64,000 bases of DNA from Candidatus Falkowbacteria bacterium (lineage in GTDB: Bacteria; Patescibacteriota; Patescibacteriia; UBA11705), in contig DOZJ01000002.1 of the NCBI GenBank assembly GCA_003518055.1, forward strand, positions 299,785-363,784. The letters are read 5' to 3'. Each line of letters opens with the position of its first letter. Position 1 is the stretch's first letter. Positions 2,314 to 64,000 of this stretch are shown here, piece after piece. The notes under the pieces were generated by a model that did no database searches, was not told the DNA's origin, and worked only from the letters and a program-made list of their open reading frames with translations. The position numbers were made by a program, and so were the translations under genes.

Positions 2314-2318
2314 TCGTC

Positions 2319-3798: not shown

Positions 3799-3799
3799 T

Positions 3800-4081: not shown

Positions 4082-4258
4082 TGTCTTTTGACAATAAAAA
4101 ATACGAAAGAGTATTGAAAGTATAAATTTCTGTATTGATATTTATTAGACAAAAACCCCAGTCCTTATATTTCCAAAAAAGCTAATTTAAGCTAAAAAGT
4201 CGTGTTGGCCTTAGTTGCCTCATTTGCATCTTTTTGGCTTAAATTAGCAAACTGGACT
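4082..4258 (+). promoter_or_regulatory. AT-rich CRISPR leader with a long imperfect inverted repeat (arms about 4176-4199 and 4230-4252)
   Basis: AAAAAGCTAATTTAAGCTAAAAAG ... CTTTTTGGCTTAAATTAGCAAAC immediately upstream of repeat 1. Confidence 0.6.
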
Positions 4259-5470
4259 GTCTAATATCAATATTCAATTTCTACTTTCGTAGATCAACAT
4301 TGTTTTGCGTAAACTGCAACTGTCTAATATCAATATTCAATTTCTACTTTCGTAGATATTTCTCTTCCTGAACCTTGCTCTGTGTCTAATATCAATATTC
4401 AATTTCTACTTTCGTAGATGATTGTTCCACTTCGCCGTCCGGCCAGTCTAATATCAATATTCAATTTCTACTTTCGTAGATATAACTATATAAGTTAAAT
4501 AAATCAGTCTAATATCAATATTCAATTTCTACTTTCGTAGATGCAACGGCGTTCAGACATATATAGAGGTCTAATATCAATATTCAATTTCTACTTTCGT
4601 AGATGCCGACGTAATGGGTGTTAGGTCTATGTCTAATATCAATATTCAATTTCTACTTTCGTAGATGTTGGGTATTCGGATAATACAGCGAGTCTAATAT
4701 CAATATTCAATTTCTACTTTCGTAGATGAAATCCTGAATATGATTCGGCTAAAGTCTAATATCAATATTCAATTTCTACTTTCGTAGATATTCAGCCGTT
4801 GCTTCTCTAACATAGTGTCTAATATCAATATTCAATTTCTACTTTCGTAGATCTTAAGCAGGCTTTTTCAATTGACGCGTCTAATATCAATATTCAATTT
4901 CTACTTTCGTAGATCTCCGGCCCGATAAAATAGCGTCAGGTATAATATCAATATTCAATTTCTACTTTCGTAGATACTTCGTGAAAATCAAATCACCGTG
5001 TGTCTAATATCAATATTCAATTTCTACTTTCGTAGATTCTTGCAAATGCCGAAACGCCAATAATGTCTAATATCAATATTCAATTTCTACTTTCGTAGAT
5101 ATGGGGGAACTTGCGGGCGTGGCTGGTCTAATATCAATATTCAATTTCTACTTTCGTAGATGCTACCAATGGCACAAACCTGTATAGTCTAATATCAATA
5201 TTCAATTTCTACTTTCGTAGATGCAGTCCCAGACCTCCTTTTGATTAAGTCTAATATCAATATTCAATTTCTACTTTCGTAGATCCATCCTCATAACTGG
5301 CGTCATCAGCAGTCTAATATCAATATTCAATTTCTACTTTCGTAGATCAAAATGCCTGTGAATCCACCATAAAGTCTAATATCAATATTCAATTTCTACT
5401 TTCGTAGATATAGAAAACGCCACATCACCTGCGCGTCTAATATCAATATTCAATTTCTACTTTCGTAGAT
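4259..5470 (+). CRISPR. CRISPR array: 20 x 36-bp repeat GTCTAATATCAATATTCAATTTCTACTTTCGTAGAT with 19 spacers of 25-27 nt; repeat 12 (4940-4975) has a C>A variant at its third base
   Basis: Repeat starts counted at 4259, 4322, 4384, 4446, 4507, 4569, 4631, 4692, 4754, 4817, 4879, 4940, 5002, 5065, 5126, 5187, 5249, 5312, 5374 and 5435. The 3' end of the repeat, AATTTCTACTTTCGTAGAT, is the canonical Cas12a crRNA handle (UCUACU-N-GUAGAU stem), oriented for plus-strand transcription. Confidence 0.97.
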
Positions 5471-5535
5471 ATTTCACCTACACTCAAAAATTAACGGCCA
5501 TAAACTCGCCACCGACCACAAAAGGAGTGAACACC

Positions 5536-5814
5536 ATGAGCTTTTACGCGCTTTTCTACTGGGGCTGGATTACCTTGACCGCCGCCATAGCTCTGCTCTA
5601 TGCCGTTAGTCCGTGTATCATGTTGTACAGCGGTCTTGACACCGGTGCTTATCAGATGCGTGAATTTTGGTACATTTTCCTCCCCGGCTGCTTTGGTTCT
5701 GTTATCGCCGTCAGATTTTTTGGTCAATTCTTCGTTCAGATGATGCGGCAGCGCCGCTTCAAACGCAAGCTTGACCGTGATCTCCGGTGTCCCAAGCCGA
5801 TCCGGCCGAGTTGA
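5536..5814 (+). CDS. Small hydrophobic membrane protein (hypothetical)
   Basis: AAGGAG Shine-Dalgarno 8 nt upstream of ATG 5536; two predicted TM helices; basic C-terminus. Confidence 0.5.
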   Translation: MSFYALFYWGWITLTAAIALLYAVSPCIMLYSGLDTGAYQMREFWYIFLPGCFGSVIAVRFFGQFFVQMMRQRRFKRKLDRDLRCPKPIRPS

Positions 5815-15360: not shown

Positions 15361-15461
15361 TTCAAATTAATGATGTATTCTAATTGAGAATACTGAAGAA
15401 TTGTCCTATTTATTATAATTATATCCTAATTTCTAAGTCCTGAATCCTAAACAATGATATT

Positions 15462-15505
15462 TAGGGTTTAGCGTGAAGCGTTTAGCGTTTAGTTGAACTA
15501 GACAC
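15462..15505 (+). repeat. Heptamer tandem repeat TTTAGGG/TTTAGCG; inverted copy at 31890-31935
   Basis: atttagggtttagcgtgaagcgtttagcgtttagtt; its reverse complement occurs upstream of another plus-strand gene. Confidence 0.55.
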
Positions 15506-15560
15506 CCTTTACGTTGCAGCTTATTTAGAATTTTTAATTTTTAATTTAAAATTTAACGCT

Positions 15561-31863: not shown

Positions 31864-31889
31864 ATTGCATATTGCGTTTAACTGTTAGG

Positions 31890-31935
31890 GTATAATTGAA
31901 ACTAAACGCTAAACCCTAAACTCTAAACGCTTGAA
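31890..31935 (-). repeat. Heptamer repeat block (reverse complement of 15462-15505)
   Basis: aactaaacgctaaaccctaaactctaaacgc. Confidence 0.5.
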
Positions 31936-31977
31936 TTTTTCGAGTTTTATCATTTATGATTTGTTATTTGTGATTTA

Positions 31978-32152
31978 TATGCAGGAGGAGAGACTATTAA
32001 AAAAACTGACGCAAAAAGCCCGCGTGCGGCGGCAGCAAAAACGGCGGGTTAGTCCTGCGTCTGGAACAACCAGCCGCGAAATTAAACGTCAAGAGCTGGC
32101 TATGAAGCGGAGAAAAATCAACGTCAAGGTTTCTGTCCGGATAAAAAAGTAG
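31978..32152 (+). CDS. Highly basic 57-aa protein (hypothetical)
   Basis: The ORF-track TTG start was trimmed to ATG 31978 (MQEERLLKK...); very Lys/Arg-rich. Confidence 0.35.
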
Positions 32153-32193
32153 CTGTTATTAACAGGGGGACGGTAGGGTGACAAATACTCCTC

Positions 32194-32385
32194 GTGTCAT
32201 GCTGAGGCTCTCGCCTGCCCACCGGCTTGTCTGCCGGAGTTTTAACGAAGGCAGAAGTTTTAACGTAGGTGGGAAGCATAGACGCGAGCCTTCAACTCAC
32301 CCTTCGATCCCGCCGCTCGCGAGCAGCGGGATCGAGTGCCCTGCCTACCGCCTGCCGGCAGGCAGGGCAGGCAGGCTCGGGGTAA
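32194..32385 (+). repeat. Dispersed structured element copy B plus an adjacent GC-rich palindromic segment
   Basis: CTCGCCTGCCCACCGGCTTGTCTGCCGGAGTTTTAACGAAGGCAGAAGTTTTAACGTAGGTGGG... is followed by GATCCCGCCGCTCGCGAGCAGCGGGATC and CTGCCGGCAGGCAGG palindromes. ORF 32178..32435 across it is rejected. Confidence 0.6.
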
Positions 32386-32452
32386 CAAATTATTTCACGC
32401 AGTACGTGACTGCGCTCAGAGTGACAAAAATTTAAACATCAATATTTTCAAT

Positions 32453-51355: not shown

Positions 51356-53581
51356 ATGCCTACCAACAATCCTAACGATGACATCACTTACTTTGCCAAG
51401 ACCGATTTTCGCGGTCAAGGCGTTAAGTTTGGGATTCGGCGCGATGACCGCCGCCGCCACATGTACATCATCGGTAAAACCGGTATGGGCAAGTCGGTTT
51501 TGATTGAAAATTTGGTTTATAGCGACATTATTAACGGCAATGGCGTGGCTCTGATCGATCCCCACGGCGATTCAGTTGAACAAATTATCAAATCCATACC
51601 GGCCGAACGTATCAATGATGTGGTTTATATCAATCCGGCTGATCTTGATTTCCCGGTCGCTTTTAATGTTTTGGAAAAGGTTGAAGCCAAATATCGCCAC
51701 CTCATCGCCTCGGGCATTGTCGGGGTGTTCAAAAAACTCTGGGCTGACAGCTGGGGCCCACGTTTGGAGTATTTACTGCGCAACGCGATTTTGGCCCTGC
51801 TTGATTATCCCGACAGCACGCTGCTCGGTGTTAACCGGCTTTTTATTGACAAAGATTACCGCAAAAAGGTGGTAGCAAAAGTCAAAGATCCGGTCGTCAA
51901 AGCTTTCTGGGAGGATGAATTTTCCAAATACAATCAGTCGTTTATGGTTGAGGCGATCGCGCCTATTCAAAACAAGGTCGGACAGTTTTTGTCGACATCG
52001 TTGGTCCGCAATCTGGTCGGTCAGGTGAAATCAACCATTGATATGCGCAAGATTATGGATGATGGCAAGATTCTACTGGTTAATTTGTCCAAAGGTAGAA
52101 TCGGTGAAGACTCTTCCGCCATGATCGGCAATATGATCGTTACCAAACTGCAGCTGGCCGCTATGAGCCGAGTGGATATGCCGGAAAGTGAGCGCCGCGA
52201 TTTTTATTTATATGTTGATGAGTTCCAAAACTTCGCTACCGAATCATTCGCCAACATTTTATCCGAAGCTCGAAAATACAAATTAAATTTGATTGTCGGT
52301 CATCAATACATCGAACAGCTTGACGAGACGGTTTCCGCCGCGATTTTTGGTAACGTCGGCACATTCGTCGTTTTCAGAGTCGGCGCCGCCGATGCCGAGG
52401 TGCTGGTCAAGGAGTTTGAACCGTTTTTCCTCGAAGAAGACCTGGTCAACTTACCCAAATATCATGTTTATTTGAAATTAATGATCAATGGTGTAGCCTC
52501 TGATCCGTTTAGCGCCGCCACCTTGCCGCCGCATTCGGTTGAAACCGGCACAGAGGAAACCGTGATTGCCGTTTCTCGTGAACGCTATGGCCGCCCGCGC
52601 GAGATGGTTGAAGACAAGATTGCCCGCTGGAGCGGGATTGAAACCGAAGAAATGCTGGAAAAACTGGAAAGAGATCAATTAGATAAAAAAATAAAAAAAG
52701 TTCAAGCCAAAGGCATTGATTTTCTAGCCAGTCTGGATGGTTATTTGCATCAAGAAGACGAGGTTGAAACCAATGATGACGGGACTCCGAGCGTCGAAGA
52801 GGAATACGTGGTGAATTGTAATTCTTGCGGCGAAAAAACCAAAATTACTTTCAAGCCGGATGGTGTTAGACCTGTATATTGTAAAGATTGTTTGAGCGAA
52901 TATCGGCGCCAGCAATCAACGGCGGAAAATCTCAGCCAAGGCATTAGCCCGGTGGCAAAAGAACGTGATGATGAAGATGACCGGCCTTCGAAGTGGCCTA
53001 AAAAGAAAAAATTTATTGATTATGATCGCGCGCGCAAGGTTCAAGATTCGTTAAAACGGCCGGTTACGCCGCCTCCAACTCCGGCGCCGAGACCAAGTTT
53101 TCAAACCGCACCAAAACCAACCGTTAGTAGCACTACAACGGTCAATTCAAAACCAACAACAACAATAACCACAACAACAACGACAACAACACAGCGTCCA
53201 TCAAGCAGTGCAGTTCAGCCGTCCTCTCAATCTCGACCGGCCCAGCCATCAAAACCGGCAGCGGTTGTTAATCAAGCTGCAGGCACTCCACGCCCCGCGA
53301 AGCCGCCAACATCCCCGGCCGCTATGACCAAACCAATCACACCGCCACGGCCCAAAGTTGAACCCAAACCGCTCAGTCAAGGTGAAATCGTCGCCAAAGA
53401 CACGCCGGAAGAAATTTCCTTAGCCGCGGCCTTATCCCAAGGCGTGCAGACATTCTCCGGTAAAAAACGGAAAGATTTAAAATTGGATGATGATATATTT
53501 GCCAATTATCAAAAAATGATCAGCGGCGGCGAGGCTGACGACGACGAGGCTTCGGCTGAAGGTTTGAAAGTAGCCGAGTAA
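51356..53581 (+). CDS. TrwB/VirD4/TraD-like P-loop ATPase with a C-terminal CxxC...CxxC zinc ribbon and a Thr/Pro-rich disordered tail
   Basis: YIIGKTGMGKSVLIENL...ALIDPHGD (Walker A and coupling-protein-like block); Walker B LYVDEFQNF; zinc ribbon CNSCGEKTKITFKPDGVRPVYCKDC; the tail is encoded partly by an (ACA)n tract. Confidence 0.6.
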   Translation: MPTNNPNDDITYFAKTDFRGQGVKFGIRRDDRRRHMYIIGKTGMGKSVLIENLVYSDIINGNGVALIDPHGDSVEQIIKSIPAERINDVVYINPADLDFPVAFNVLEKVEAKYRHLIASGIVGVFKKLWADSWGPRLEYLLRNAILALLDYPDSTLLGVNRLFIDKDYRKKVVAKVKDPVVKAFWEDEFSKYNQSFMVEAIAPIQNKVGQFLSTSLVRNLVGQVKSTIDMRKIMDDGKILLVNLSKGRIGEDSSAMIGNMIVTKLQLAAMSRVDMPESERRDFYLYVDEFQNFATESFANILSEARKYKLNLIVGHQYIEQLDETVSAAIFGNVGTFVVFRVGAADAEVLVKEFEPFFLEEDLVNLPKYHVYLKLMINGVASDPFSAATLPPHSVETGTEETVIAVSRERYGRPREMVEDKIARWSGIETEEMLEKLERDQLDKKIKKVQAKGIDFLASLDGYLHQEDEVETNDDGTPSVEEEYVVNCNSCGEKTKITFKPDGVRPVYCKDCLSEYRRQQSTAENLSQGISPVAKERDDEDDRPSKWPKKKKFIDYDRARKVQDSLKRPVTPPPTPAPRPSFQTAPKPTVSSTTTVNSKPTTTITTTTTTTTQRPSSSAVQPSSQSRPAQPSKPAAVVNQAAGTPRPAKPPTSPAAMTKPITPPRPKVEPKPLSQGEIVAKDTPEEISLAAALSQGVQTFSGKKRKDLKLDDDIFANYQKMISGGEADDDEASAEGLKVAE

Positions 53582-53590
53582 TTCAATGAT

Positions 53591-54277
53591 ATGACCGAAT
53601 GGAGACTCAACAAATATTTGGCCGAGTCCGGAGTGGCGTCTCGGCGGGCAGCCGAGCGCTTTATTTTGGCCGGACAGGTCAAAGTTAATGCCAAGGTTGT
53701 CACCGAATTGGCGACCAAAATCAAACCATCTGACCGAGTTGAGGTGAACAATAAATTAGTTCAACCCGTAGAGACCAAAGTCTGCTTCATGTTGAACAAA
53801 CCGGTTGGCTACGTTTCCACCGCCAAAGTGAGCCGAGAAACCGGCGAATCGGTTTTGAGCTTGATCGATTATTCCGGTCGCCTGTACCCGGTCGGCCGAC
53901 TGGATCGTGACTCCAGCGGTTTGCTGCTTATCACCAATGACGGTGACTTGGCTTTGCGCTTGACGCATCCGCGTTATGAAAAAGACAAGGAATATGAAGT
54001 TACGGTGGATAAAAAAATCACTCCCGACTTGATTGCCGGCTTCAACCGCGGTGTGCGGTTAGCCGATGGCCAAACTCTGCCGGCCAAATTTATCGCCGCC
54101 GGTCCCAAACGGTTTACCGTCATTTTAAAAGAAGGCAAGAACCGCCAGATTCGGCGAGTGTGCCAGAGGTTCAATTTTGCAGTCGTGAAACTGCATCGTA
54201 CGCGCATCGGAAAATTAAAACTTGGTAACCTGAAGATTGGCAGATATAACCGAATTAACGTGGAGGACATAAAATAA
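53591..54277 (+). CDS. RsuA/RluB-family pseudouridine synthase with an S4 domain
   Basis: GRLDRDSSGLLLITNDG catalytic motif. Confidence 0.85.
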   Translation: MTEWRLNKYLAESGVASRRAAERFILAGQVKVNAKVVTELATKIKPSDRVEVNNKLVQPVETKVCFMLNKPVGYVSTAKVSRETGESVLSLIDYSGRLYPVGRLDRDSSGLLLITNDGDLALRLTHPRYEKDKEYEVTVDKKITPDLIAGFNRGVRLADGQTLPAKFIAAGPKRFTVILKEGKNRQIRRVCQRFNFAVVKLHRTRIGKLKLGNLKIGRYNRINVEDIK

Positions 54278-54320
54278 TTTAAAAGAAAAAAACTGCAGTT
54301 ATTTTTGCAGTTCGAATCAA

Positions 54321-54701
54321 TTACTTTTTTTCCTCATCGGCACTCGTTTTGTGCGGCTTGAGCTTGACAATCAGATAGTACTCATACTCGTGGGGGCACT
54401 GACCGCAGCTGCATGATCTGGTGTCTTCGACCAGAAACGAAATGTTCAGGTTGTTGATGGTGAGGCTTTCGTCCTTCCAGTGTTCTCTGGCACGATCCAC
54501 GATCATGTCGAAATCGATAGGAGTCTTGCTATACTCGAAAATTTCGATCGCGAAGTGTTCATCGTTGTTGGTCAACTCGGGGCTGGGCTTGTACCGCATC
54601 TCTACGCTCCTTTTATTCGAGTGGTCTGCGTCGTGTGTGCTATCTTGCTTTCGCTTGTTATTCCTCCACGATTGTTCAGATTTTACTTTATATTTTAGCA
54701 T
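54321..54701 (-). CDS. Hypothetical small protein (126 aa), tandem paralogue 1
   Basis: Shares ...ERW.D..LT...NL.I......CxxxC..YYLIVK with the next ORF; each has the same CTGCA...TGCAG + T6 terminator. Confidence 0.5.
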   Translation of the reverse strand: MLKYKVKSEQSWRNNKRKQDSTHDADHSNKRSVEMRYKPSPELTNNDEHFAIEIFEYSKTPIDFDMIVDRAREHWKDESLTINNLNISFLVEDTRSCSCGQCPHEYEYYLIVKLKPHKTSADEEKK

Positions 54702-54780
54702 AAAAATAATAAATAGTCAATAGAGCCCATTTTTTTAGCTAAAATGAGTATAAAAAAACTGCAGTTTTGTGCAGTTAATA

Positions 54781-55131
54781 TCAATTTTGCCTTTGCTCCC
54801 GGCGTTTAACAATAATATAGTAATCACAATCAGGTTCGTCAGGACTTAATGAACTTCCCTTCATCATATCGGGATAGAGATCAATATCAAGATTGTCGAA
54901 AGTGATTGTTGGGTCATCCCAACGTTCTTTGGCTTGTTCGACTAGCTGGAAAAAGATCCGCTCTTGCTGTTCACGAGTGATAGACTGGCTGCGAGCTTTT
55001 CTGCCACACTCGCGTCGTAACGAAACCGGTAGGCTGTGATTAGTGTAAAAGGCCAGCCTTGAGAGCTGCTCCCAACAAACCACAAATTGATTTTCGTTAT
55101 CTTGGAGTTCGGGGGTGGCTTCTGGAGGCAT
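54781..55131 (-). CDS. Hypothetical small protein (116 aa), tandem paralogue 2
   Basis: See paralogue 1. Confidence 0.5.
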   Translation of the reverse strand: MPPEATPELQDNENQFVVCWEQLSRLAFYTNHSLPVSLRRECGRKARSQSITREQQERIFFQLVEQAKERWDDPTITFDNLDIDLYPDMMKGSSLSPDEPDCDYYIIVKRREQRQN

Positions 55132-55200
55132 TCATTAGCTCCTCGACCTTGGGTTGATAAAAGATGCGATTGGTTGATAGTTTAGCATCAAACATAAAAA

Positions 55201-56214
55201 ATGTCAATGAAACGGTATAAATCCATCAATCATGATGCGGTAAGTGAGATTGAGATAAAAAAACTTTGGTCTGATTTTGATTTACCTGAAATTGTCTCGA
55301 TCGAATCGCAAGCAGAATATTCATCCACCGGTTTTATTATAATAACAACCAAGAACAAATATTATCTCTGCCTTCACCCGGCCAAGCCATCGATTTTTTC
55401 CCGCAGTCAGAATGATCTTCTCGGAGAAATAGATATTTTACAGCGATTACGGGAGAAGCGGTTACCTGTCGCGCGGCCGATTGCGACCAAAGATGACAAA
55501 CTTATCATTTCGGTTAAAGGCCGCAAGGGCTTTCTTCGGGGATATCTTGAATGTGAAGCCCTCAAAAAACCATCGACGGTTAATTTAACCCAAGCCGGGG
55601 TGCTTTTGGCCAAGATTCATCTGTCTTTACGCCGCTGGACGCCGCCGCATCGCCGGACGCAATTCTGGGGGCCGGAAAAAATACGCCGGTATTGGACCAA
55701 AAATAAAAAAATAATTTTAGCCAGTAAATTACCGGATAAAAAAGCCCTAGTTGATCGGTTGGAGCAAAAACAGCACGAGTTCAAGTTTTCCAAAACGCTG
55801 CCAACGGGTATTTTGCATGAAGATTTTGGCCAAAGGCATGTATTGTGGCACAAAAATAAAATTACCGGTGTGATTGATTTTGACCGATCATACCGCGGAC
55901 TGTTAATCCTAGATGTTGGTCAAGCGATTCGTGGCTGGTGTTTTGATCCGGCATGGAAGAAGCTTAATCTCGAGAAATTAAATTATTTTTTGTCAGGTTA
56001 CCAAAGCCAAAGACAGTTATCTGTGGCTGAAAAAAAACATTTGGTTCAAGCGATAAAATTTGGCTTAGTTGAACGCGGTTTGTCGTTTTTATTAAGAGGT
56101 TTGAATTATAATAATCGGGAATGGCTGGATTTTGCCCGCCGCAGTTTGTTTAATTTGGTTGATGAGGTTGAAAAAATGGCGCCCGAGATCGAAAAAATAA
56201 AAAACACTAAATAG
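55201..56214 (+). CDS. Aminoglycoside-phosphotransferase/choline-kinase-fold kinase (APH family)
   Basis: HEDFGQRHVLW...VIDFDRS catalytic loop and DFD motif. Confidence 0.7.
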   Translation: MSMKRYKSINHDAVSEIEIKKLWSDFDLPEIVSIESQAEYSSTGFIIITTKNKYYLCLHPAKPSIFSRSQNDLLGEIDILQRLREKRLPVARPIATKDDKLIISVKGRKGFLRGYLECEALKKPSTVNLTQAGVLLAKIHLSLRRWTPPHRRTQFWGPEKIRRYWTKNKKIILASKLPDKKALVDRLEQKQHEFKFSKTLPTGILHEDFGQRHVLWHKNKITGVIDFDRSYRGLLILDVGQAIRGWCFDPAWKKLNLEKLNYFLSGYQSQRQLSVAEKKHLVQAIKFGLVERGLSFLLRGLNYNNREWLDFARRSLFNLVDEVEKMAPEIEKIKNTK

Positions 56215-56764
56215 TTTTATTTAGTGTCGGTAGAAGAGAAAACTCCGGCCCATCCGGTGTCCAATGAGCCAAGACTTTGATTGTCCTAGCCTTAGATAAC
56301 GCCGAATGATCTTGGTCAATCCAGACTTGGCGCCGGATCAAAATCCTCAAGCAATTTTTCACAATCGGTATGAGATTCCGCCAATCAGATCGTTGAGCTG
56401 TCCCTTTCCAGCCGGTTTGCTGGTCGAAATCATAATTGCCGTTTTTATACCATTGCCAGCCGCGAGAAATTAGGAAGAGTGAGTGCGTTATAAGCGAAGC
56501 CTGAACATAAATAATCAAGTCGTATTTTTCAAGCGGTTCCCGCGCGCCGCCGCCGGTGCCATGGACGTCTTCGATAAAATAAAATGTCCCTTCGGCAAAA
56601 GTTTTCGGCTCGGCGCAATCTCGATCGATCGGGTGACGGGTGGTGATAAAATTATCCGCGTCAAAGTGGGCGACCGGCCACTGAAGCGATCGAAATAACT
56701 GAACTAATTGTCGGCGCAAAGTGCTTTTACCAACAATCCCAATGCCGGTAATCAGAATTTTCAT
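56207..56764 (-). CDS. P-loop NTPase/kinase-like protein
   Basis: ILITGIGIVGKST Walker A; GAGGAG Shine-Dalgarno. Confidence 0.55.
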   Translation of the reverse strand: MKILITGIGIVGKSTLRRQLVQLFRSLQWPVAHFDADNFITTRHPIDRDCAEPKTFAEGTFYFIEDVHGTGGGAREPLEKYDLIIYVQASLITHSLFLISRGWQWYKNGNYDFDQQTGWKGTAQRSDWRNLIPIVKNCLRILIRRQVWIDQDHSALSKARTIKVLAHWTPDGPEFSLLPTLNKTI

Positions 56765-56854
56765 GGTGGTCTCCTCATTTTGGGTATTGAACAGATTATT
56801 TTAACATCCAGTTTGGGAATTGTCAATCGTTAGGTCGTTTGAACCAAAATAAAA

Positions 56855-58612
56855 ATGAAAAACAAAACCAAAGATCTGCTGCTCGTTTTTAGTCATGTTT
56901 ATAAACTTATAATCGGTTATAAGCGGCTTTTGTTTTTTTCGGTTTTTATCGTGATGTTAACGCAAGTGATTGATTTGGCCGGCCGATATTTATTCAAAGA
57001 TATTATCGATGGATTAATTAGTGATCCGATCATTGCCGTCAATAAACTCGTGCTGCTGGTTGGCGGCATGGTCGCCGTTTATTTTTCGATCAGTGTCTTG
57101 GAATATTTCAGCACCTTATACATTGTAAAGACTGAGGTCCAGATCGGCCACGAATTGATGCTGCGGGTGTATCAAAAACTGATGGATTTATCCCTCGGTT
57201 ATCACGAAAAAGAAAATACCGGCTCTAAATTGACCAAGATTCAATACGGGATCGAAAGTATCAAAAATATTTATTCCCGATTTTTTTGGGATTTTTTTCC
57301 GACGCTGATTAAGATTTTATTCACCTTCGGATTTTTTATCGTGCTTGACTGGCGCATCAGTCTGGTCTATTTGATTATTGTGCCTTTATTCATTATCAAG
57401 TCCCTGAGACTCAACTTTCGGTTGTATCCTTTCCGCAAAAAAATCCGCCGCGGTTTTGAGCATGTCTACGGCGATATGGGGCAGACGGTGTACAATATCA
57501 AAACCGTTCAGGCGTATGTGCAGGAACACACGGAAATGGGCCGCAGCAAGCGCGGCGTGGCCGGAATCCTGAGAACCCAACTGGATTTCTTCCGGATTAT
57601 GTTCTCCGGCAATTTTATCCGCTACAATCTTATTACCATCGGCATGGCCGCGGTCATCGGTTTCGGTTCTTATCTTGCCTACATCGGCGCCGTCACTCCC
57701 GGCGAATTGGTTATGTTTTTAACTCTGGCCATGGAGTCATACTTTTCTTTGTTTCAATTATCCCGCGTTTATGATCATATTATGGAAGCCAAAGTCGGCG
57801 TCGAACGCATCACCAAGATATTGGAATCCGAACCGGATATCGATAAACATCTTGGTCAGGAAAAAATTGATCTGCGCGGGCAAATCGAATTTCATCGGGT
57901 CTATTTCAATTACGGCGAAGGCAACGTGATCAAAGATTTTACTTTAAAAATCAAACCCGGCGAAGTAGTCGCGTTTGTCGGTCCGTCCGGCGGCGGCAAG
58001 TCCACCATTGTCAAATTGCTCTATCGGTATTTTGACGCAGTCAAAGGCTCAATCCTTATCGATGGGATCAATCTCAAGGATTTGGATCTCGAATATTACC
58101 GCCGCCAGCTCGGCATTGTGACGCAGGATATTGATATTTTTAATGACACCATAGAATCTAATATCAAATACGGTGACCAGACCGCGTCGGCGCGGCGCAT
58201 CGTCGAGGCGGCCAAAATCGCCAACGCCGATGAATTTATTCGCAAGCTGACAAAGAAATATCAGTCCATTGTCGGCGAACGGGGGATCAAGCTTTCCGGC
58301 GGTCAAAAACAACGGATCGGCATCGCTCGAGCCGTGTTGGTCGATCCTAAAATTTTAATCCTTGACGAAGCGACCAGCTCTCTCGACGCCGAGTCAGAGG
58401 AAATGATCAAGCAAGCCATTAACACAGTGATAAAAAATCGCACCACCATTATTGTGGCCCACCGGTTGTCAACCATTCAGCACGCTGATCGGATTGTGGT
58501 GATTGACAAGGGCCGCATTGTCGAACAGGGGACTCACAAAGCATTGTTGCGCCAAAACGGCACTTACGCCCGATTGATCAAATTACAAATAGGGGGATAT
58601 TTAAGCTCATAA
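56855..58612 (+). CDS. ABC exporter, fused permease-ATPase (MsbA-like)
   Basis: 6-TM domain, Walker A GPSGGGKST, signature LSGGQKQR, Walker B ILILDEATS. Confidence 0.9.
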   Translation: MKNKTKDLLLVFSHVYKLIIGYKRLLFFSVFIVMLTQVIDLAGRYLFKDIIDGLISDPIIAVNKLVLLVGGMVAVYFSISVLEYFSTLYIVKTEVQIGHELMLRVYQKLMDLSLGYHEKENTGSKLTKIQYGIESIKNIYSRFFWDFFPTLIKILFTFGFFIVLDWRISLVYLIIVPLFIIKSLRLNFRLYPFRKKIRRGFEHVYGDMGQTVYNIKTVQAYVQEHTEMGRSKRGVAGILRTQLDFFRIMFSGNFIRYNLITIGMAAVIGFGSYLAYIGAVTPGELVMFLTLAMESYFSLFQLSRVYDHIMEAKVGVERITKILESEPDIDKHLGQEKIDLRGQIEFHRVYFNYGEGNVIKDFTLKIKPGEVVAFVGPSGGGKSTIVKLLYRYFDAVKGSILIDGINLKDLDLEYYRRQLGIVTQDIDIFNDTIESNIKYGDQTASARRIVEAAKIANADEFIRKLTKKYQSIVGERGIKLSGGQKQRIGIARAVLVDPKILILDEATSSLDAESEEMIKQAINTVIKNRTTIIVAHRLSTIQHADRIVVIDKGRIVEQGTHKALLRQNGTYARLIKLQIGGYLSS

Positions 58613-58613
58613 T

Positions 58614-60434
58614 ATGAAAAAAATTTTAGTGTTCATCATTTTTCTCTGCCTGCCGGTGTTCTCGGTGATCGCCACCGACTCTTCTGACTCCTACCCACCG
58701 GTGGACTATGATAAAATTGTTCTGCCGGAAGAAATCGAAACGGGATTTTCTTTGGCTGAACCGTCGAGGGATAGTTCATCCTCGAATGTTGGGTTTATCC
58801 CCGATGATCTTTTGTATGACTGGGTAATTGAGGCTTTCGACGCGGTATATCAAGTCAAAGATGACGGCACGATCGAGGTGACGGAAACAATTTTGGCTGA
58901 TTTTCATGAGGAAAAACATGGAATCTTTCGTTCCATCCCGATTGAGTACAAAGATACTCAGGGGTTTAATTATAAATTACGGATTTCTAATGTGTCAGTC
59001 ACGAATGAGGTCGGTGATAACTATCCTATCGCCGATAGGGGTAGCAACCCATTTTATCTGAAGATTGGTGACCCAGATGTTACCCTCACCGGCAAGCATA
59101 TTTATGTCATTCAATACACCATCGATCGTGGTATTAGATTTTTTACTGATCATGATGAGTTCTATTTCAACATAACCGGCAGTGAATGGGATACTTATAT
59201 CGCAGCGGCTTCTGCTACTATCAAATTTGATCCGGTGGCGGTGTCAGAGACCCATTGGGCCTGCTACTTTGGTTCTCCCGGGAATGATTCCGAAGGCTGT
59301 GTTTTGACCGGTCAGACAGATTCGGAGCTCCATTTCGCCATCAATCGTCCGCTGATGAATGCAGAGAATGAAGATTTTACAGTAGTTGTGTGGTTACCTA
59401 AAGGTGCCGTGCCGCCATTAACCCTGAGTCAACAGGTGAAATACTGGATTCTGGACAATTGGGGTTTATTTATCGCTCCGATTGTCTTTTTATTAATGTT
59501 CTACCTGTGGTGGCGCAAGGGGCACGATCCGAAATTCACCAAAACTGTCATCGCTCAATATGATGAAGATCCGGCGCTCTCTCCTCTGCTGGCCAATGTG
59601 ATTCTCAAAGACGCCACATTTTCCAGCCGCGCCTTGTCAGCGGAGATTGTTTATTTGGCGGCGCATGGCTATATGACGATCACTGAAATTCTAAAACCGA
59701 ACAACAACAAGGTTGATGATTATGAATTGGTCAGGATCAAAGAACCGGATGACAAATTAAAATCATATCAACGCATCTTATTAACCAAACTATTCAGTTT
59801 GGGCGTAAACGGAAAGGTGTTGATGAAGAAAGATTTGAAGTATAAATTTCATCTCGAAATCCCCAAGATAAGAAATGAGGTAAATAAAGCTGTTGAGCCG
59901 TATTATGCTACTTCGCCTGAATGGCGGATCGGACTTATGATTGTCGGTGGTTTGGTCGGCGGCGGCGGGTGGATCGCGGGCGTCACACTCGGCCGGCTGG
60001 ATTTAACCATCGGCGGCGTTTTGGCCGGAATCGCTATTGTCGGCTTTGGTTGGTTTATGCCAAAAAAAACGTTGGCCGGTCAGGAGTTAGCTTGGCATAC
60101 CCGTGGACTTAAGGAATTTATCAAAGTTACGGACAAAGACCGCGCTAAATTTTATGAGGACAAAAATATGTTTGTCAAAGGATTACCATACGCCATGGTC
60201 TTTGGTCTGGCAGACAAGTGGGGCAAGGCCTTTGAGGGGATATATACCGAATCACCAGATTGGTATCATACGACCCGCATGGGAGCTTTTAATTCCTTGA
60301 TGTTTACAAATTCAATCTCATCATTCAGCTCCACTTCGAACTCTAATAGTTTTGCCGCGCCATCTTCCAGCTCCGGTTTTAGCGGTGGCGGAGCCGGTGG
60401 CGGTTTTGGCGGCGGTGGCGGCGGCAGCTGGTAA
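58614..60434 (+). CDS. DUF2207-like membrane protein with a Gly-rich C-terminal tail
   Basis: Signal peptide, large extracytoplasmic domain, TM segments, C-terminal GGGAGGGFGGGGGGSW. Confidence 0.5.
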   Translation: MKKILVFIIFLCLPVFSVIATDSSDSYPPVDYDKIVLPEEIETGFSLAEPSRDSSSSNVGFIPDDLLYDWVIEAFDAVYQVKDDGTIEVTETILADFHEEKHGIFRSIPIEYKDTQGFNYKLRISNVSVTNEVGDNYPIADRGSNPFYLKIGDPDVTLTGKHIYVIQYTIDRGIRFFTDHDEFYFNITGSEWDTYIAAASATIKFDPVAVSETHWACYFGSPGNDSEGCVLTGQTDSELHFAINRPLMNAENEDFTVVVWLPKGAVPPLTLSQQVKYWILDNWGLFIAPIVFLLMFYLWWRKGHDPKFTKTVIAQYDEDPALSPLLANVILKDATFSSRALSAEIVYLAAHGYMTITEILKPNNNKVDDYELVRIKEPDDKLKSYQRILLTKLFSLGVNGKVLMKKDLKYKFHLEIPKIRNEVNKAVEPYYATSPEWRIGLMIVGGLVGGGGWIAGVTLGRLDLTIGGVLAGIAIVGFGWFMPKKTLAGQELAWHTRGLKEFIKVTDKDRAKFYEDKNMFVKGLPYAMVFGLADKWGKAFEGIYTESPDWYHTTRMGAFNSLMFTNSISSFSSTSNSNSFAAPSSSSGFSGGGAGGGFGGGGGGSW

Positions 60435-60562
60435 TTTCAACTTAAACAATCAAAGTTAATAATCATAAAAGAGGCGCTTTTGGCCTCTTTTGCAGTTATT
60501 GACAATTTGATATCAATGTGATAATCTTTTTTGTTCCTCAACCACGAAGGCAGGAGGGGATT

Positions 60563-60994
60563 ATGGTAGATAAAGTCAGAGTATGCTTGGTCCTGTCGGT
60601 TCTTGACACCAAATTGGGCCGGAATCGTTGTTTTATTTTAGATCGTGATTTATCGTTCAATGCTATTCCTGGCAATACCGCGGGCTTGAATTTTATGGTG
60701 CGGTCGAGAAATAATTATTTTCGACTGGATGGCTTGGTTGTGGCTCCAGATGTTTATCATGATGTGGCGACGGATGTGCGAGTGATTTTTGTTAGTATCT
60801 ATGAACGTGACGAATTGAAAGCCGCGATTGAACAGGAAATTCTCTCATATGAGCCTCATTGTGGTTTGGGCGGTCTTTTGCCGGCCGAAGCCGAGGCTGG
60901 CAATACATCACGGCCACTGTTTATTGAAAGTGTCCGTTTCGCTAAAATGCTGGATGAAATTATTATTGAAGTAAGAAATAGGGGTGCTGAATAA
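60563..60994 (+). CDS. Hypothetical protein (143 aa; start trimmed from GTG to ATG 60563 with a GGAGGGG Shine-Dalgarno)
   Basis: No recognised motif. Confidence 0.45.
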   Translation: MVDKVRVCLVLSVLDTKLGRNRCFILDRDLSFNAIPGNTAGLNFMVRSRNNYFRLDGLVVAPDVYHDVATDVRVIFVSIYERDELKAAIEQEILSYEPHCGLGGLLPAEAEAGNTSRPLFIESVRFAKMLDEIIIEVRNRGAE

Positions 60995-61077
60995 TTGATT
61001 TATCTGAACCGCTATAATTGGCGGTTTTTTTGTTTGACTGAATTTGGTATAATTAGTTAGTGAAGATGAAAGAGTAA

Positions 61078-61160
61078 TCAGTGATTAGCGATTAGCAATT
61101 AGCGATTAGTAACTAGCGATTAGTAATTAGTAACTAGCAAATAGCGATTAGCACTATTAC
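61078..61160 (+). repeat. Array of about 11 heptamers (GATTAGC/AATTAGC/AACTAGC...), left arm of an inverted-repeat pair
   Basis: gtgattagcgattagcaattagcgattagtaactagcgattagtaattagtaactagcaaatagcgattagcac. Confidence 0.8.
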
Positions 61161-61176
61161 ATAGGAAATAGTTATT

Positions 61177-61542
61177 ATGAGTAATATAGACAATTTTAGA
61201 GATTTGAAAGCCTGGCAGCACAATCATCAAATTGTTATCAAAATATATCAATTAACCAAAAAATTTCCCGATGAAGAAAGGTTTGGTCTTTGCAGCCAGG
61301 TCAGGCGCTCTGCTTCGTCAATAACCGCTAATATTTCTGAAGGTTTTGGTCGTTATTATTACAAAGATAAGATACGATTTTATTATTTCGCCAGAGCATC
61401 AAGCGTGGAAACCCAAAACCATTTACTTTTAGCTGCTGATCTTGGATATCTATCAAAAGAAATTGTAGAAAATTTATTTGTGCAATTAGGTGAGGGCCAA
61501 AAAATGATAAACGGTTTAATTAACTCATTAAATTCCAGATAG
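61177..61542 (+). CDS. Four-helix-bundle protein of the 23S-rRNA-IVS / Avd family
   Basis: DLKAWQHNHQIVIKIYQLTKKFPDEERFGLCSQVRRSASSITANISEGFGR...ETQNHLLLAADLGYLSKE matches the family consensus closely. Confidence 0.8.
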   Translation: MSNIDNFRDLKAWQHNHQIVIKIYQLTKKFPDEERFGLCSQVRRSASSITANISEGFGRYYYKDKIRFYYFARASSVETQNHLLLAADLGYLSKEIVENLFVQLGEGQKMINGLINSLNSR

Positions 61543-61555
61543 TAAATCGTTCTTA

Positions 61556-61625
61556 TCCCTAATCGCTAGCCGCTAGTTGCTAATTCCCCGGATTTTCCCG
61601 AATTGCTAATTACTATTTGCTAGTT
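61556..61625 (-). repeat. Heptamer array in inverted orientation (GCTAATC/GCTAGTT...), right arm; last about 27 nt are the reverse complement of 61130-61160
   Basis: ctaatcgctagccgctagttgctaatt...gctaattactatttgctagttgct. Confidence 0.75.
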
Positions 61626-61635
61626 GCTAAAATAT

Positions 61636-63027
61636 ATGAAACTAAAATTCTGCGGCGCCGCCCAAAACGTCACCGGCTCGCGTCATTTATTGCTTTACGA
61701 CAACAAAAAAATTCTCCTGGACTGCGGCTTGGTTCAGGGTGGTTTCGGCCGGCTTGAAAACCATCAGATGAACAACAATTTTTTGTTTGACCCCAAAACC
61801 ATTGACGCGGTTGTGCTGTCTCATGCCCATATTGATCACGCCGGCAACCTGCCAACGCTGATTCGTCAGGGATTCAAGGGCAAAATTTACTGCACCGAGC
61901 CGACCGTTGAACTGTTGGCTGTGATGCTCGAGGACGCCGCCAAAATTCAAGCTCAGGACGCGGAATATCTGCGCAAACGGTTTCAGGAAGAAATTTCTCC
62001 CTTGTATGACAAAGCAGACGTCGCGAAAACCTTGAAACGTCTGGTCGGTTACAAGTACGGAGAGCCCTTTGAAGTGGAGCCGGGCTGTCAAGCGGTTTTT
62101 TACGACGCCGGCCACGTTCTCGGTTCCGCGCAAGTCTTTTTGACGGTCAATGAAGGTAATGTTACAAGACGGATTGCCTACACCGGCGATCTCGGCCGAA
62201 AAAATATGCCGATTTTAAATGACCCATACCAAATCCCATCGGCCGACGTTTTAATCACCGAGAGTACTTACGCCGAACACCTTCATGATTCATTTGAATA
62301 TGTGTTTGAAGAAATGGAATGGGTCGTCCGAGATGTCGTGGCGCGGGGAGGGAAGATTATCGTTCCGGGTTTTTCGCTCGAACGGACCCAGGAGCTGATT
62401 TATGTCTTGCATAAACTTTATTTGGATAAAAAAATTCCGGCCGTGCCGATTTTCGTCGATAGCCCCATGTCAACCAAAATTTCCGAAGTGTTTATGCGGC
62501 ACGTCGATTATTACGATGATCAGTCGTTCAAAGATTTCCTCGGCCGGGCCAAGAGTCCATTTGCTTTCAAAAATCTGAAATATATCACCTCGGTCAATGA
62601 CTCAAAAAAACTGAATGAATACAAAGGCTCATGTATTATTATTTCCGCCTCAGGCATGTGTACCGCCGGCCGCATCGTTCATCATTTAAAACATAACATC
62701 GAGGATCCCCGCAATTTGATTTTAATTGTCGGCTATATGGCCAAGGGCACTCTCGGCCGACGGATCGTGGAGCAAAAGCGCAAAGTAAAAATTATGGGCA
62801 GCTTTTATAATCTGAAAGCCGATGTTCTGGCCATGAATGAATTTTCCGCGCACGCTGATAAGCTGGAATTGATGGACAATATTAAAAAAATAAAAAAACT
62901 GAAGCAGATATTTATTGTCCACGGTGAAGAGTTGGCCACCGCGTACATGCGCGATAACATAATAAACACCTTAAAATTCAAAGGGGAAGTTTACGCCCCG
63001 AAACTGGGGGAGAGTTTTGATCTTTAA
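61636..63027 (+). CDS. Metallo-beta-lactamase / beta-CASP ribonuclease (RNase J / CPSF-like)
   Basis: HAHIDHAGNLP motif, beta-CASP region; start trimmed from TTG to ATG 61636. Confidence 0.75.
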   Translation: MKLKFCGAAQNVTGSRHLLLYDNKKILLDCGLVQGGFGRLENHQMNNNFLFDPKTIDAVVLSHAHIDHAGNLPTLIRQGFKGKIYCTEPTVELLAVMLEDAAKIQAQDAEYLRKRFQEEISPLYDKADVAKTLKRLVGYKYGEPFEVEPGCQAVFYDAGHVLGSAQVFLTVNEGNVTRRIAYTGDLGRKNMPILNDPYQIPSADVLITESTYAEHLHDSFEYVFEEMEWVVRDVVARGGKIIVPGFSLERTQELIYVLHKLYLDKKIPAVPIFVDSPMSTKISEVFMRHVDYYDDQSFKDFLGRAKSPFAFKNLKYITSVNDSKKLNEYKGSCIIISASGMCTAGRIVHHLKHNIEDPRNLILIVGYMAKGTLGRRIVEQKRKVKIMGSFYNLKADVLAMNEFSAHADKLELMDNIKKIKKLKQIFIVHGEELATAYMRDNIINTLKFKGEVYAPKLGESFDL

Positions 63028-63049
63028 TTTTTTTTCAATTTATTTCATT

Positions 63050-63463
63050 ATGTTTTCCGCGGTCTTACTTGATCTCTACGGCGTGATTTATCCCGACGCT
63101 CAAAATCAGTCGGCTGCTTTTGTGGCCAAGATTAAAGAGCTCGGGCTGCAAATAATTGTTGTTACTAATTTGAATGCGGATTTGGCGCGTCAAATTTGCG
63201 ATCAACTTTCGATTCAGCATGTTTACCTCTGCCAGCAACTTGGCTTGGCCAAAACCGACCCTGAGTTGTATGAGCAAATTATTCATGACCACGAATTAAC
63301 CGCCTCGGAAGTGGTGATGCTTGATGACACTTGCGCCAATTTGCAGGCGGCAGGGGAATCCGGCGTCAAAACAGTGTATTTTGGGGCTGACGATTGCCCA
63401 TTTGCCGGCCGAGTTATTAACAGTCTGGATGATTTTTTACTTATTTTAAGCGAAAAGCCATAA
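63050..63463 (+). CDS. HAD-superfamily hydrolase (small, variant motif I)
   Basis: LLDLYGVIY (DxYG variant), MLDDT; start trimmed to ATG 63050. Confidence 0.55.
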   Translation: MFSAVLLDLYGVIYPDAQNQSAAFVAKIKELGLQIIVVTNLNADLARQICDQLSIQHVYLCQQLGLAKTDPELYEQIIHDHELTASEVVMLDDTCANLQAAGESGVKTVYFGADDCPFAGRVINSLDDFLLILSEKP

Positions 63464-63537
63464 ATCAAATTGAAATTGTGAAATTCCCTTATTTTTGCTA
63501 AGATTAACTTTAAGATTATTAAAATAAATAATGTACT

Positions 63538-64000
63538 ATGGAAACAAAACCCAACAGCTCAAATAAAATGAATTTTTTTATGGGCTTTTTTGCTGGTCTA
63601 GCCAGCGTTAGTGTGATTGGCTTTTTTGTCCTTTTGGTCATGATTTTTACCGGTAATAATGATGGCGAGGTATTGGCCGGTGCTCGAGCCGGTACGGCTG
63701 ATAACAACGACGCGGCCGCGGCTGAAATTGTCGACGAAGGCGAAACCGCCGCACAGCCGGTTCGGTCAATCTCCGAGGATGATCATTACACCGGTAATCT
63801 CAATGCTCCGGTGCAGTTGATTATTTATGATGATTTTGAATGCCCATTTTGTTTGAGACATGAAGAAACGGTTAAACAGATCCGCAGCGCTTATGGTGAT
63901 GATCAGGTTGCGATCGCTTATCGCCACTTCCCATTATCATTCCACGCCAGCGCGCAAAAAGCAGCTGAAGCCTCAGAGTGCGCGGCTGAACAAGGGAAAT
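63538..64000 (+). CDS. Membrane-anchored DsbA-like thiol:disulfide oxidoreductase (3' truncated by the window end)
   Basis: TM helix, then thioredoxin-fold motif CPFC (YDDFECPFCLRH); not in the ORF track because there is no stop within the window. Confidence 0.7.
   Translation, partial: METKPNSSNKMNFFMGFFAGLASVSVIGFFVLLVMIFTGNNDGEVLAGARAGTADNNDAAAAEIVDEGETAAQPVRSISEDDHYTGNLNAPVQLIIYDDFECPFCLRHEETVKQIRSAYGDDQVAIAYRHFPLSFHASAQKAAEASECAAEQGK

Follow-up and report, generated by a model that had tools for sequence, protein, structure and literature searches.

A four-helix-bundle gene between inverted heptamer-repeat arms in a Falkowbacteria genome: a candidate intervening-sequence-type cassette outside rRNA

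A PF05635 gene between complementary heptamer arrays

We analyzed a 64,000-nt stretch of a Candidatus Falkowbacteria (Patescibacteria) genome (GenBank assembly GCA_003518055.1, contig DOZJ01000002.1, positions 299,785 to 363,784 of the forward strand), hereafter the window. Near its end, a small gene of the four-helix-bundle family known from rRNA intervening sequences (IVSs) is carried on a unit of about 550 nt, the cassette, which is bounded by inverted arrays of tandem heptamers (Table 1). The 121-aa product of this gene matches the Pfam family PF05635 (23S_rRNA_IVP) along the entire model (positions 1–106 of 106; E = 1.8e-36; 125 bits, cut-off 33.8) and the NCBIfam model TIGR02436, "four helix bundle protein" (119 bits, cut-off 24). 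Judged by these profile matches, it is a full-length PF05635/TIGR02436 member above the curated cut-offs, in agreement with the family named in the original prediction, which had been made from the letters of this stretch alone. A profile built from 32 homologues matches the Protein Data Bank entries 2GSC (XCC0516, E = 3.7e-29) and 2RLD, and homology to these solved members predicts a four-helix-bundle fold. The conserved motif of the family, G-x2-R-x3-S-x3-N-x2-E (Zhang et al. 2013, PMC3936711; Lin et al. 2006), takes the form R44-x3-S48-x3-N52-x2-E55-G56 in this protein; R44, S48, N52 and E55 lie within FGLCSQVRRSASSITANISEGFGR, and their columns are invariant or nearly so in an alignment of 32 sequences. 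An identical protein, which NCBI names "four helix bundle protein", is encoded on groundwater contigs of the Rifle aquifer project (PRJNA292723). PADLOC returned no defense-system match for the 121-aa protein or for the product of the open reading frame (ORF) upstream of it (143 aa, 60563–60994), which has no family match. By analogy with its relative Avd, an accessory protein of diversity-generating retroelements (DGRs), our best guess is that the 121-aa protein may bind nucleic acid, possibly the repeats themselves.

Table 1. Features of the cassette, its surroundings and the solo heptamer arrays of the window
Feature	Position	Strand	Basis
Terminator-like hairpin (61006-61027) followed by T-run TTTTTGTTTGA	61006-61037	+	terminator scan
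Extended -10 promoter-like motif TGGTATAAT	61045-61053	+	read from sequence
5' arm, purine-rich, 10 tandem heptamers GATTAGC/AATTAGC/GATTAGT/AACTAGC/AAATAGC (TAG-Y-R-A-Y)	61084-61153	+	Tandem Repeats Finder, pattern search, fold
AGGAA, putative ribosome-binding site 9-10 nt 5' of ATG	61163-61167	+	sequence, inference
Four-helix-bundle protein gene (PF05635 / TIGR02436), 121 aa	61177-61542	+	Pfam, NCBIfam, PDB profile match
3' arm, inner block CTAATCG CTAGCCG CTAGTTG CTAATT, reverse complement of 5' units	61559-61585	+	inverted repeats 76-85%, minimum-free-energy pairing
G+C-rich 15-nt spacer CCCCGGATTTTCCCG, splits 3' arm, small side hairpin in fold	61586-61600	+	fold, sequence
3' arm, outer block AATTGCTAATTACTATTTGCTAGTTGCTAA, base of long stem in minimum-free-energy fold	61601-61630	+	Tandem Repeats Finder (period 7, 4.3 copies); inverted repeats 83-89%
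Beta-CASP metallo-beta-lactamase-fold ribonuclease-type gene, downstream host gene	61636-63027	+	Pfam Beta-Casp (E = 1e-42), RMMBL
Solo array TTTAGGG TTTAGCG TGAAGCG TTTAGCG TTTAGT, leader of rplU (L21, 15561-15983)	15459-15493	+	Tandem Repeats Finder, pattern matches, L21 Pfam
Solo array, CTAAACG on + strand (TTTAGCG inverted), before small basic ORF	31901-31931	-	Tandem Repeats Finder, pattern matches, sequence

Tandem Repeats Finder (TRF) resolves the upstream array into 10.0 copies of a period-7 unit (consensus ATTAGCA/ATTAGCG, 74% matches, score 70). The array itself is therefore as first described, though not the count of about 11 units; degenerate AGYRAWY (AG-Y-R-A-W-Y) units can be followed by eye further upstream, back to about 61055. 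Downstream of the gene the complementary units form two blocks, the outer of which stops 5 nt short of the beta-CASP start codon (61636). Inverted repeats link the two sides in more than one way: 61127–61153 with 61604–61630 (27 nt, 89% complementary), 61125–61151 with 61559–61585 (27 nt, 85%) and 61097–61130 with 61552–61585 (34 nt, 76%). Pairing is about equally good in several 7-nt registers, as arrays would lead one to expect. The first of these pairs is the 27-nt terminal repeat of the original prediction, which is real but had been placed a few bases away.

Folding of the RNA from 61060 to 61650 pairs 61092–61151 with approximately 61559–61630 and leaves the ORF in the loop, so that complementary termini enclose the insert as they do in an IVS. 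The predicted stem consists of helices of 14, 6, 8, 14 and 10 bp with bulges of 1–3 nt between them, an interrupted stem of about 55 bp. Its minimum free energy is −150.6 kcal/mol, compared with −118.4 ± 7.6 for shuffled sequences (z = −4.2; none of 100 shuffles as stable), and the duplex of the two 150-nt flanks alone reaches z = −6.3. The unit also has the terminal inverted repeats of a transposon or foldback element, except that its arms are tandem arrays, not unique ends.

The heptamer arrays are not low-complexity background. A strict period-7 detector reports only five segments in the window, 140 nt or 0.22% of its length, and RWTTAGCRWTTAGC, allowing up to two mismatches, occurs 24 times against 7.2 ± 3.2 expected, its matches clustering at the cassette and at 15459–15493 (+) and 31901–31928 (−). 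Two outcomes named at the outset as fatal to the proposal, arrays that prove to be ubiquitous background and flanks that fail to pair, are thereby ruled out, and the architecture that had been proposed, inverted arrays forming a stem with the gene in its loop, is upheld by repeat finding and by the fold. Nine assemblies of the population from which the window derives, obtained from several samples, carry identical arrays, as consensus sequences in which minor variants are invisible.

The cassette appears to lie within an mRNA leader. The hairpin at its left (9-bp stem, four GC pairs) and the T-run behind it would terminate the 143-aa ORF and set the left limit of the transcription unit of the cassette. 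A two-hexamer promoter scan did not list TGGTATAAT, as no properly spaced −35 element accompanies it. If this motif is used, transcription would start near 61060, which would place the 5' array within the 5' leader and both arms, together with the beta-CASP gene, on one transcript. The 143-aa ORF, the four-helix-bundle gene and the beta-CASP gene all lie on the + strand, and the beta-CASP gene, although outside the cassette, is probably co-transcribed with it. The unit is not inserted in a 23S or 16S rRNA helix: the genes on both sides are protein-coding, as had been noted from the start, and an Rfam scan of the whole window found no family at threshold, rRNA included.

Recurrence and strand polarity of the packaging

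The same packaging surrounds homologues of the gene in other genomes. We collected 80 loci with homologues (36–60% identity) from species-representative genomes of the Genome Taxonomy Database, spanning many phyla, and calculated array coverage for 73 genes, taking 150 nt on each side as flanks and sequence more than 300 nt away as background. Period-7 arrays cover 6.0% of the upstream and 7.9% of the downstream flanks compared with 0.5% of the background, and period-8 arrays 2.2% and 5.0% compared with 0.18%. Arrays of period 7 or 8 are thus 12- to 28-fold enriched within 150 nt of the gene, and periods 5, 6, 9, 10 and 11 are enriched little or not at all by comparison. Upstream of the gene, the longest in-register chain of a 4-mer had period 7 in 31 flanks and period 8 in six; downstream, these counts were 23 and nine. 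A laxer detector found a 5' array at 48 of the 80 genes, a 3' array at 54 and both at 38. The arrays commonly have four to five units, and the upstream array and the reverse-complemented downstream array frequently have a common core. The best ungapped complementarity between the two flanks of a locus has a median of 13. The median drops to 7 if the partner is the downstream flank of a different locus (Mann-Whitney p = 6e-25), and comparing the flanks in direct orientation likewise gives 7 (p = 6e-13).

The recurrent layout, purine-rich tandem units before the ATG and their reverse complement after the stop codon, is found in bacteria of the candidate phyla radiation (CPR), in Bacteroidota, Acidobacteriota, Chloroflexota and Omnitrophota, and on viral contigs, where 19 loci from IMG/VR have the same inverted-array architecture. 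The units vary from locus to locus. Most CPR loci use AGTAACT/AGTAATC-type heptamers and others GATAACA, GTGACCA or GTAAATN; Bacteroidota have octamers, for example AGAAGTTA and GGAGTTTA; GTGAACA and TCGAAAC occur in Acidobacteriota, and GGGATAA and GAGGCAN in Chloroflexota. Units vary even within one metagenome-assembled genome (MAG), as between CCGGCTAY in L025 and GTAATNN in L033, and the two arms of each cassette stay matched all the same. Many units hold a stop codon, so that a period-7 array puts stops in all three frames, although this is not universal (GGGAATC, GGCTATC).

Several signs indicate that the packaging is transcription-linked and strand-specific. Where the two neighbors of the gene share an orientation, the gene is co-directional with them in 55 of 57 loci, and its start codon follows the upstream stop codon at a median of 40 nt; the cassettes therefore sit tightly, and in sense, inside strings of genes. 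One such case, going by the gene table of PMC5524665, is found in Flavobacterium columnare, where the cassette has gmk and nadD as its neighbors. Purines predominate in the 5' arm at 40 of 48 loci and pyrimidines in the 3' arm at 44 of 54 (p ~3e-6 each). At 48 of 78 loci, the flanks form a more stable minimal hairpin when read as the sense strand than as the antisense strand (Wilcoxon p = 0.018), an asymmetry that G-U pairs would give.

Two variants of the layout were observed. At L089 (Roseivirga thermotolerans, about 2944–5703), two cassettes with GTTAATN-type arms occupy gene junctions of a cluster that, with genes assigned by eye, resembles one for tryptophan biosynthesis; between them lies a short hairpin of CAGAAAA/TAGAAAA units and their complement that holds no ORF and looks like a gene-less version of the cassette. 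At seven IMG/VR loci (L171–L174, L179, L184 and L188), 40–60 nt containing a TAnnTTTG motif separate the 5' array from the ATG. TAnnTTTG is the −7 promoter consensus of Bacteroidota, which suggests a promoter internal to the hairpin in cassettes of this type.

The site in relatives and other features of the window

Relatives of the window organism retain a syntenic order of a DUF2207 gene, the beta-CASP gene and a DsbA-like gene, and the cassette is polymorphic in its presence at this orthologous site. The window has the cassette with both arms (its own beta-CASP protein serving as the 100% reference). Three relatives whose beta-CASP protein is 84% identical (L090, L190 and L191) carry it at the same place, with five AGTGGTA/AATGGTA units upstream and the 3' arm almost gone. 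It is absent from L189 (83%), L091 (78%), L192 and L193 (68%; DUF2207 and beta-CASP genes 6 nt apart) and L194 (64%). With the flanking gene at 64–84% identity, gain and loss look alike, and even the nearest homologues, at 83–84%, leave filled and empty sites that do not align at the nucleotide level. The four-helix-bundle proteins of the window and L090 are 64% identical (88% positives), compared with 59% for DUF2207 and 84% for beta-CASP. The cassette was probably already present in the common ancestor of the two organisms and retained as a protein-coding gene; since their split, the units have probably drifted, still agreeing in the form T-R-G-Y-R-A-N, and one arm has decayed.

Repeats are also present at or near this site in two relatives that have no cassette. 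In L091, about 450 nt upstream of the beta-CASP gene (1740–2180) consist of G+C-rich dispersed palindromic repeats (CCTGAAACAAGTTCAGGATGAC..., several copies), a different repeat family. We rejected a weak TTTGTAA/TTACAAA palindrome in the same leader as an ORF-less hairpin, as its fold is no more stable than those of shuffles (z = −0.47). In L194, a short heptamer run (TCATTGA CCATGGA ACATTGA TCATTGA TTAATAG; 1355–1395) directly follows the DUF2207 stop codon, the position that the cassette takes in the lineage of the window.

The original prediction had also pointed to heptamer blocks far from the cassette, near 15462 and 31890. Both exist, as solo arrays whose unit TTTAGCG is one base away from the cassette unit ATTAGCG. 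The array in the rplU leader has a local fold with z = −3.0. The other directly follows a TATAAT (31891–31896), and the local fold of the region 31885–31985 is not significant against shuffles. Although the two arrays are mutual reverse complements, the 16 kb between them led us to reject the idea that they form one hairpin. The original suggestion that these TTTAGCG/CTAAACG arrays are footprints or landing sites of the element is unsupported, and a historical or mechanistic link to the cassette is unproven. Each is followed, within about 30–40 nt, by a second, unrelated A+T-rich heptamer array (15523–15556, ATTTAGA/ATTTTTA...; 31946–31978, TTTATCA/TTTATGA...), and these second arrays stand right before the start codons of rplU and of the small basic ORF (31931–32152); heptamer periodicity seems to be a trait of leaders in this genome. 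Solo units resembling those of the window occur in other CPR genomes, at L046 (2215–2239), L011 (967–991) and L051 (1566–1602), with TTAGCAA TTAGCGT TTAGCGT, TTAGCTN and TAGGGTN, respectively, and a solo array at L018 (459–492) uses GTAACNN, the unit of the resident cassette. Overall, the frequency of solo period-7 arrays in PF05635 loci is 3.7 times that of control loci, whereas periods 5 and 6 do not differ between the two sets; this enrichment may be taxonomic, as the control taxa differ.

The downstream host gene encodes a protein that is widespread in CPR genomes (7099 homologues at E < 1e-100). It scores 409 bits on the NCBIfam model for Cas14 of type VII CRISPR systems (cut-off 800) and 308 on that for archaeal aCPSF1 (cut-off 580); being below both cut-offs, it was assigned to neither and is taken as a generic bacterial beta-CASP ribonuclease-type protein. 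PADLOC gave a weak match for this protein alone (PDC-M48B, E = 4.4e-05).

Elsewhere in the window, 8 kb upstream of the cassette, a 741-aa protein with TrwB/TraG-type domains (DUF87, TrwB_AAD_bind, TraG-D_C; 51356–53581), preceded by a DUF8128 protein, may be a piece of a conjugative or type IV secretion-like module. A G+C-rich, palindrome-rich non-coding stretch at 32150–32440 (for example GCCTGCCGGCAGGCAGGGCAGGCAGGC), set in an A+T-rich intergenic region and without an Rfam match, precedes a 355-aa ORF whose longest reading begins at 32336, within the 3' end of the stretch. A type V-A CRISPR-Cas locus occupies 157–5473; its first ORF (718 aa, with RuvC_1 and Cpf1 PI domains) corresponds to a Cas12a-like C-terminal part and is followed by Cas4, Cas1, Cas2 and an array of about 20 36-nt repeats (GTCTAATATCAATATTCAATTTCTACTTTCGTAGAT) with spacers of about 26 nt.

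Known systems and interpretation

The cassette has in common with the 23S rRNA IVSs of Leptospira, Coxiella burnetii, Brucella and relatives of Xanthomonas a gene of the same family, the PF05635 "S23p" ORF, held in the loop of a stem. The C. burnetii IVS is 428–444 nt long, similar in size to the approximately 550 nt found here, and consists of a 28-bp terminal stem with the PF05635 ORF in its loop and three to four tandem GACAGAT heptamers, in a strain-dependent number, just before that ORF (PMC4990558). Tandem heptamers directly upstream of the ORF are therefore a property of both, and the IVS analogy turns out stronger than originally claimed. RNase III cuts the Coxiella IVS in vitro, and its mapped 5' processing site is at the first repeat; the authors rate the RNA as more relevant than the protein and cite the old idea of IVSs as mobile elements (Ralph and McClelland 1993, cited in PMC4990558). 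PF05635 ORFs also occur in insertions of the 16S and 23S genes of CPR bacteria (bioRxiv 10.1101/2024.02.27.582315). The cassette departs from an rRNA IVS in that it lies between a protein gene and the beta-CASP gene, apparently in an mRNA leader and not in an rRNA gene, in that both its arms are built of tandem repeats, the 3' arm split in two, and in that cleavage here is predicted.

Bacterial heptamer arrays have been described independently of this gene family. The arrays of Xanthomonas and Nostoc resemble those flanking PF05635 genes in that they are built of imperfect tandem heptamers with a unit specific to the genome, lie in intergenic regions and leaders, and often occur as inverted pairs; work on cyanobacteria refers to the tandemly repeated heptanucleotides of Calothrix as "STRR sequences". 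In Xanthomonas campestris, Rehm et al. (2015, PMC4692102) counted 186 GGGAATC arrays of no known function, of which 70 stand in convergent pairs; they also reported GGGGA(C/T)T heptamers in Nostoc, both units being over-represented in intergenic regions, and cited the Calothrix repeats. These authors treated the arrays as simple sequence repeats that form G-quadruplexes and drew no tie to PF05635 genes, and a gene of this family is missing between most of the arrays; the units of the window, in contrast, are A+T-rich and unable to form quadruplexes. Their supplement places array number 15 at the start codon of the gene for XCC0516, the crystallized PF05635 protein, without comment from the authors. 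A full-text search of the literature outside subscription journals found no paper on inverted tandem-repeat arms around non-rRNA PF05635 genes, and the widespread packaging of such genes outside rRNA appears to be undescribed.

We consider it somewhat probable that the locus is an IVS-type "gene-in-a-hairpin" cassette in an mRNA leader, co-transcribed with host genes, whose stem is likely a substrate of RNase III. This account builds on the protein family, the arrays, their complementarity, the predicted stem, the recurrence of the packaging, its strand polarity, its orientation bias and its patchy presence; we infer transcription from TGGTATAAT, RNase III cleavage, any benefit or selfishness of the element, its mobility and the function of its protein. 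Lying in sense between the terminator/promoter-like region and the beta-CASP gene, the cassette would place both arms on a read-through transcript. There they would zip into a long imperfect double-stranded stem, about 55 bp, of the kind that RNase III cuts in rRNA IVSs, and the cut would free a loop RNA carrying the four-helix-bundle ORF and part it from the downstream host message. Arms made of tandem repeats would still pair after slipping by one unit, making the stem robust to insertions and deletions.

A number of findings weigh against this account. About half of the homologous loci have no detected array on one or both sides. Units keep a core of 4–5 nt (GTAAY in most CPR loci) with two to three variable positions, which pairing alone is insufficient to explain. 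The gap in stability between sense and antisense hairpins is small and the signal weak (p = 0.018). The L090 cassette, having lost most of its 3' arm, folds no better than shuffles (z = −0.95), so the stem is not indispensable for keeping the gene. A signature search found no RNase III gene in the window, a result confined to these 64 kb and uninformative for the genome. And if Bacteroidota-type cassettes use the TAnnTTTG promoter, their own mRNA may lack the 5' arm, with the hairpin forming only in read-through transcripts.

Two other explanations fit much of the data and are compatible with each other. The cassette could be a DNA-level mobile element of foldback type, its arrays serving as terminal inverted repeats through which it is excised and integrated, either by an enzyme of the host or one acting in trans or with help from the four-helix-bundle protein, and the RNA hairpin being a by-product; we regard this as unlikely, though it is also compatible with the IVS-type account. 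In eukaryotic foldback elements the termini likewise consist of short tandem repeats and in some cases enclose a coding loop, and foldback transposons and miniature inverted-repeat transposable elements resemble the cassette in inverted termini, small size, intergenic location and patchy distribution. Presence at one site in only some relatives, tight insertion into intergenic spacers of conserved operons (as in Roseivirga L089, and in the 40-nt median spacing), occurrence in many phyla and on viral contigs, the different units of two cassettes in one MAG, suggesting independent acquisitions, and the old mobile-element proposal for IVSs all speak for mobility. The cassette differs from such elements, however, in having no transposase or recombinase in or beside it, no target-site duplication visible on inspection of its outer ends, and no identical copies: there is one copy in 64 kb, a weak point as this is part of the genome only, and two-copy loci carry divergent ones. 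It looks vertically inherited here, its protein identity of 64% lying within the range of its neighbors, and insertion alone would not be expected to produce a 55-of-57 bias toward the direction of host transcription, which selection could nonetheless yield. Alternatively, the repeats may be putative binding sites, with a ring-shaped oligomer (XCC0516 is a pentamer in its crystals) taking one 7-nt unit of RNA or DNA per subunit and the protein regulating its own cassette and genes with solo arrays, such as rplU with its leader array; as an explanation of the locus we find this quite improbable. It would account for the conserved core with its two to three variable positions (GTAAY-NN in most CPR loci, TAG-Y-R-A-Y in the window) and is in keeping with the usual four to five units per array. 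The related Avd has been reported to interact with the DGR reverse transcriptase. The strand polarity of the arms, the two gene leaders in the window with solo arrays of a near-identical unit, the GGGAATC array at the start codon of XCC0516 in X. campestris, and the 3.7-fold enrichment of PF05635 loci in solo period-7 arrays, a weak point given that the control taxa differ, add to the case. In this model, though, the complementarity of the arms is superfluous, the solo-array enrichment is possibly taxonomic, and units have drifted between orthologous cassettes (GATTAGC in the window, AGTGGTA/AATGGTA in L090) whose proteins are 64% identical.

The remaining explanations fare worse. That heptamer slippage switches expression of the four-helix-bundle or beta-CASP gene, as in phase variation, is very improbable. 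The array does lie between a promoter-like motif and the ORF, and heptamer copy number differs among Coxiella strains (PMC4990558). Haemophilus influenzae hmw1A offers a precedent (PMC12721329): the heptanucleotide repeats of this phase-variable gene stand between promoter and gene, as the arrays here stand behind a promoter-like motif, and RNase III acts on an element in the 5' untranslated region. That system has a single direct array of perfect units with documented copy-number switching; the cassette has imperfect units (74% matches), which reduce slippage, and an inverted partner array, which such a switch leaves unexplained, and its arrays show no copy-number change among the nine assemblies. 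A DGR remnant with an orphan Avd gene is effectively refuted at this locus, in line with the doubts voiced in the original prediction. DGRs are common in CPR bacteria, Avd is a related small four-helix-bundle protein, both families crystallize as pentamers (the PF05635 members 2GSC and 2RLD have five chains each), and the two give weak cross-matches, but the cassette protein falls below the Avd cut-offs, at 26 bits on the bAvd model PF22296 (cut-off 40) and 22 on the DGR Avd model NF033474 (cut-off 80), and scores far higher on non-DGR family models. No reverse transcriptase domain is found among the genes called within 10 kb on either side, and 52000–64000 holds no direct repeat of at least 35 nt that could be a template/variable repeat pair; we know of no Avd gene with flanking inverted tandem arrays. 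Least credible of all is chance low-complexity sequence in an A+T-rich genome beside an ordinary small gene: intergenic regions are indeed A+T-rich, and TRF reports 46 small repeats across the window, yet the controls refute it, given the shuffles, the 0.22% share of period-7 sequence, and the recurrence of the packaging in other phyla with different units and different G+C.

The function of IVS ORFs has been unassigned since 1993, and the excess of heptamers in bacterial intergenic regions has lacked an explanation since about 2007. This locus and its 80-plus relatives tie the two together, the packaging showing a fixed strand polarity and a fixed direction relative to host transcription. It is a speculative and rather doubtful extension, though one worth stating, that PF05635 proteins and bacterial heptamer and octamer arrays form one unrecognized protein-repeat system, in which an oligomer would recognize the units and the gene would travel in a hairpin of its cognate repeat, settling in hairpin-tolerant rRNA helices as IVSs, in operon spacers and in leaders; solo arrays, such as the one in the rplU leader, the STRRs of cyanobacteria and the 186 GGGAATC arrays in Xanthomonas, could then be relics of such cassettes, their targets or sites under their regulation. 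Tractable carriers of such cassettes include Xanthomonas campestris (XCC0516), Phocaeicola vulgatus and Flavobacterium. If the hairpin insulates the inserted gene from its operon, it would provide a natural design for self-excising expression cassettes; and if the protein-repeat system is real, it would account both for the puzzle of the IVS ORFs and for the excess of heptamers in bacterial intergenic regions.

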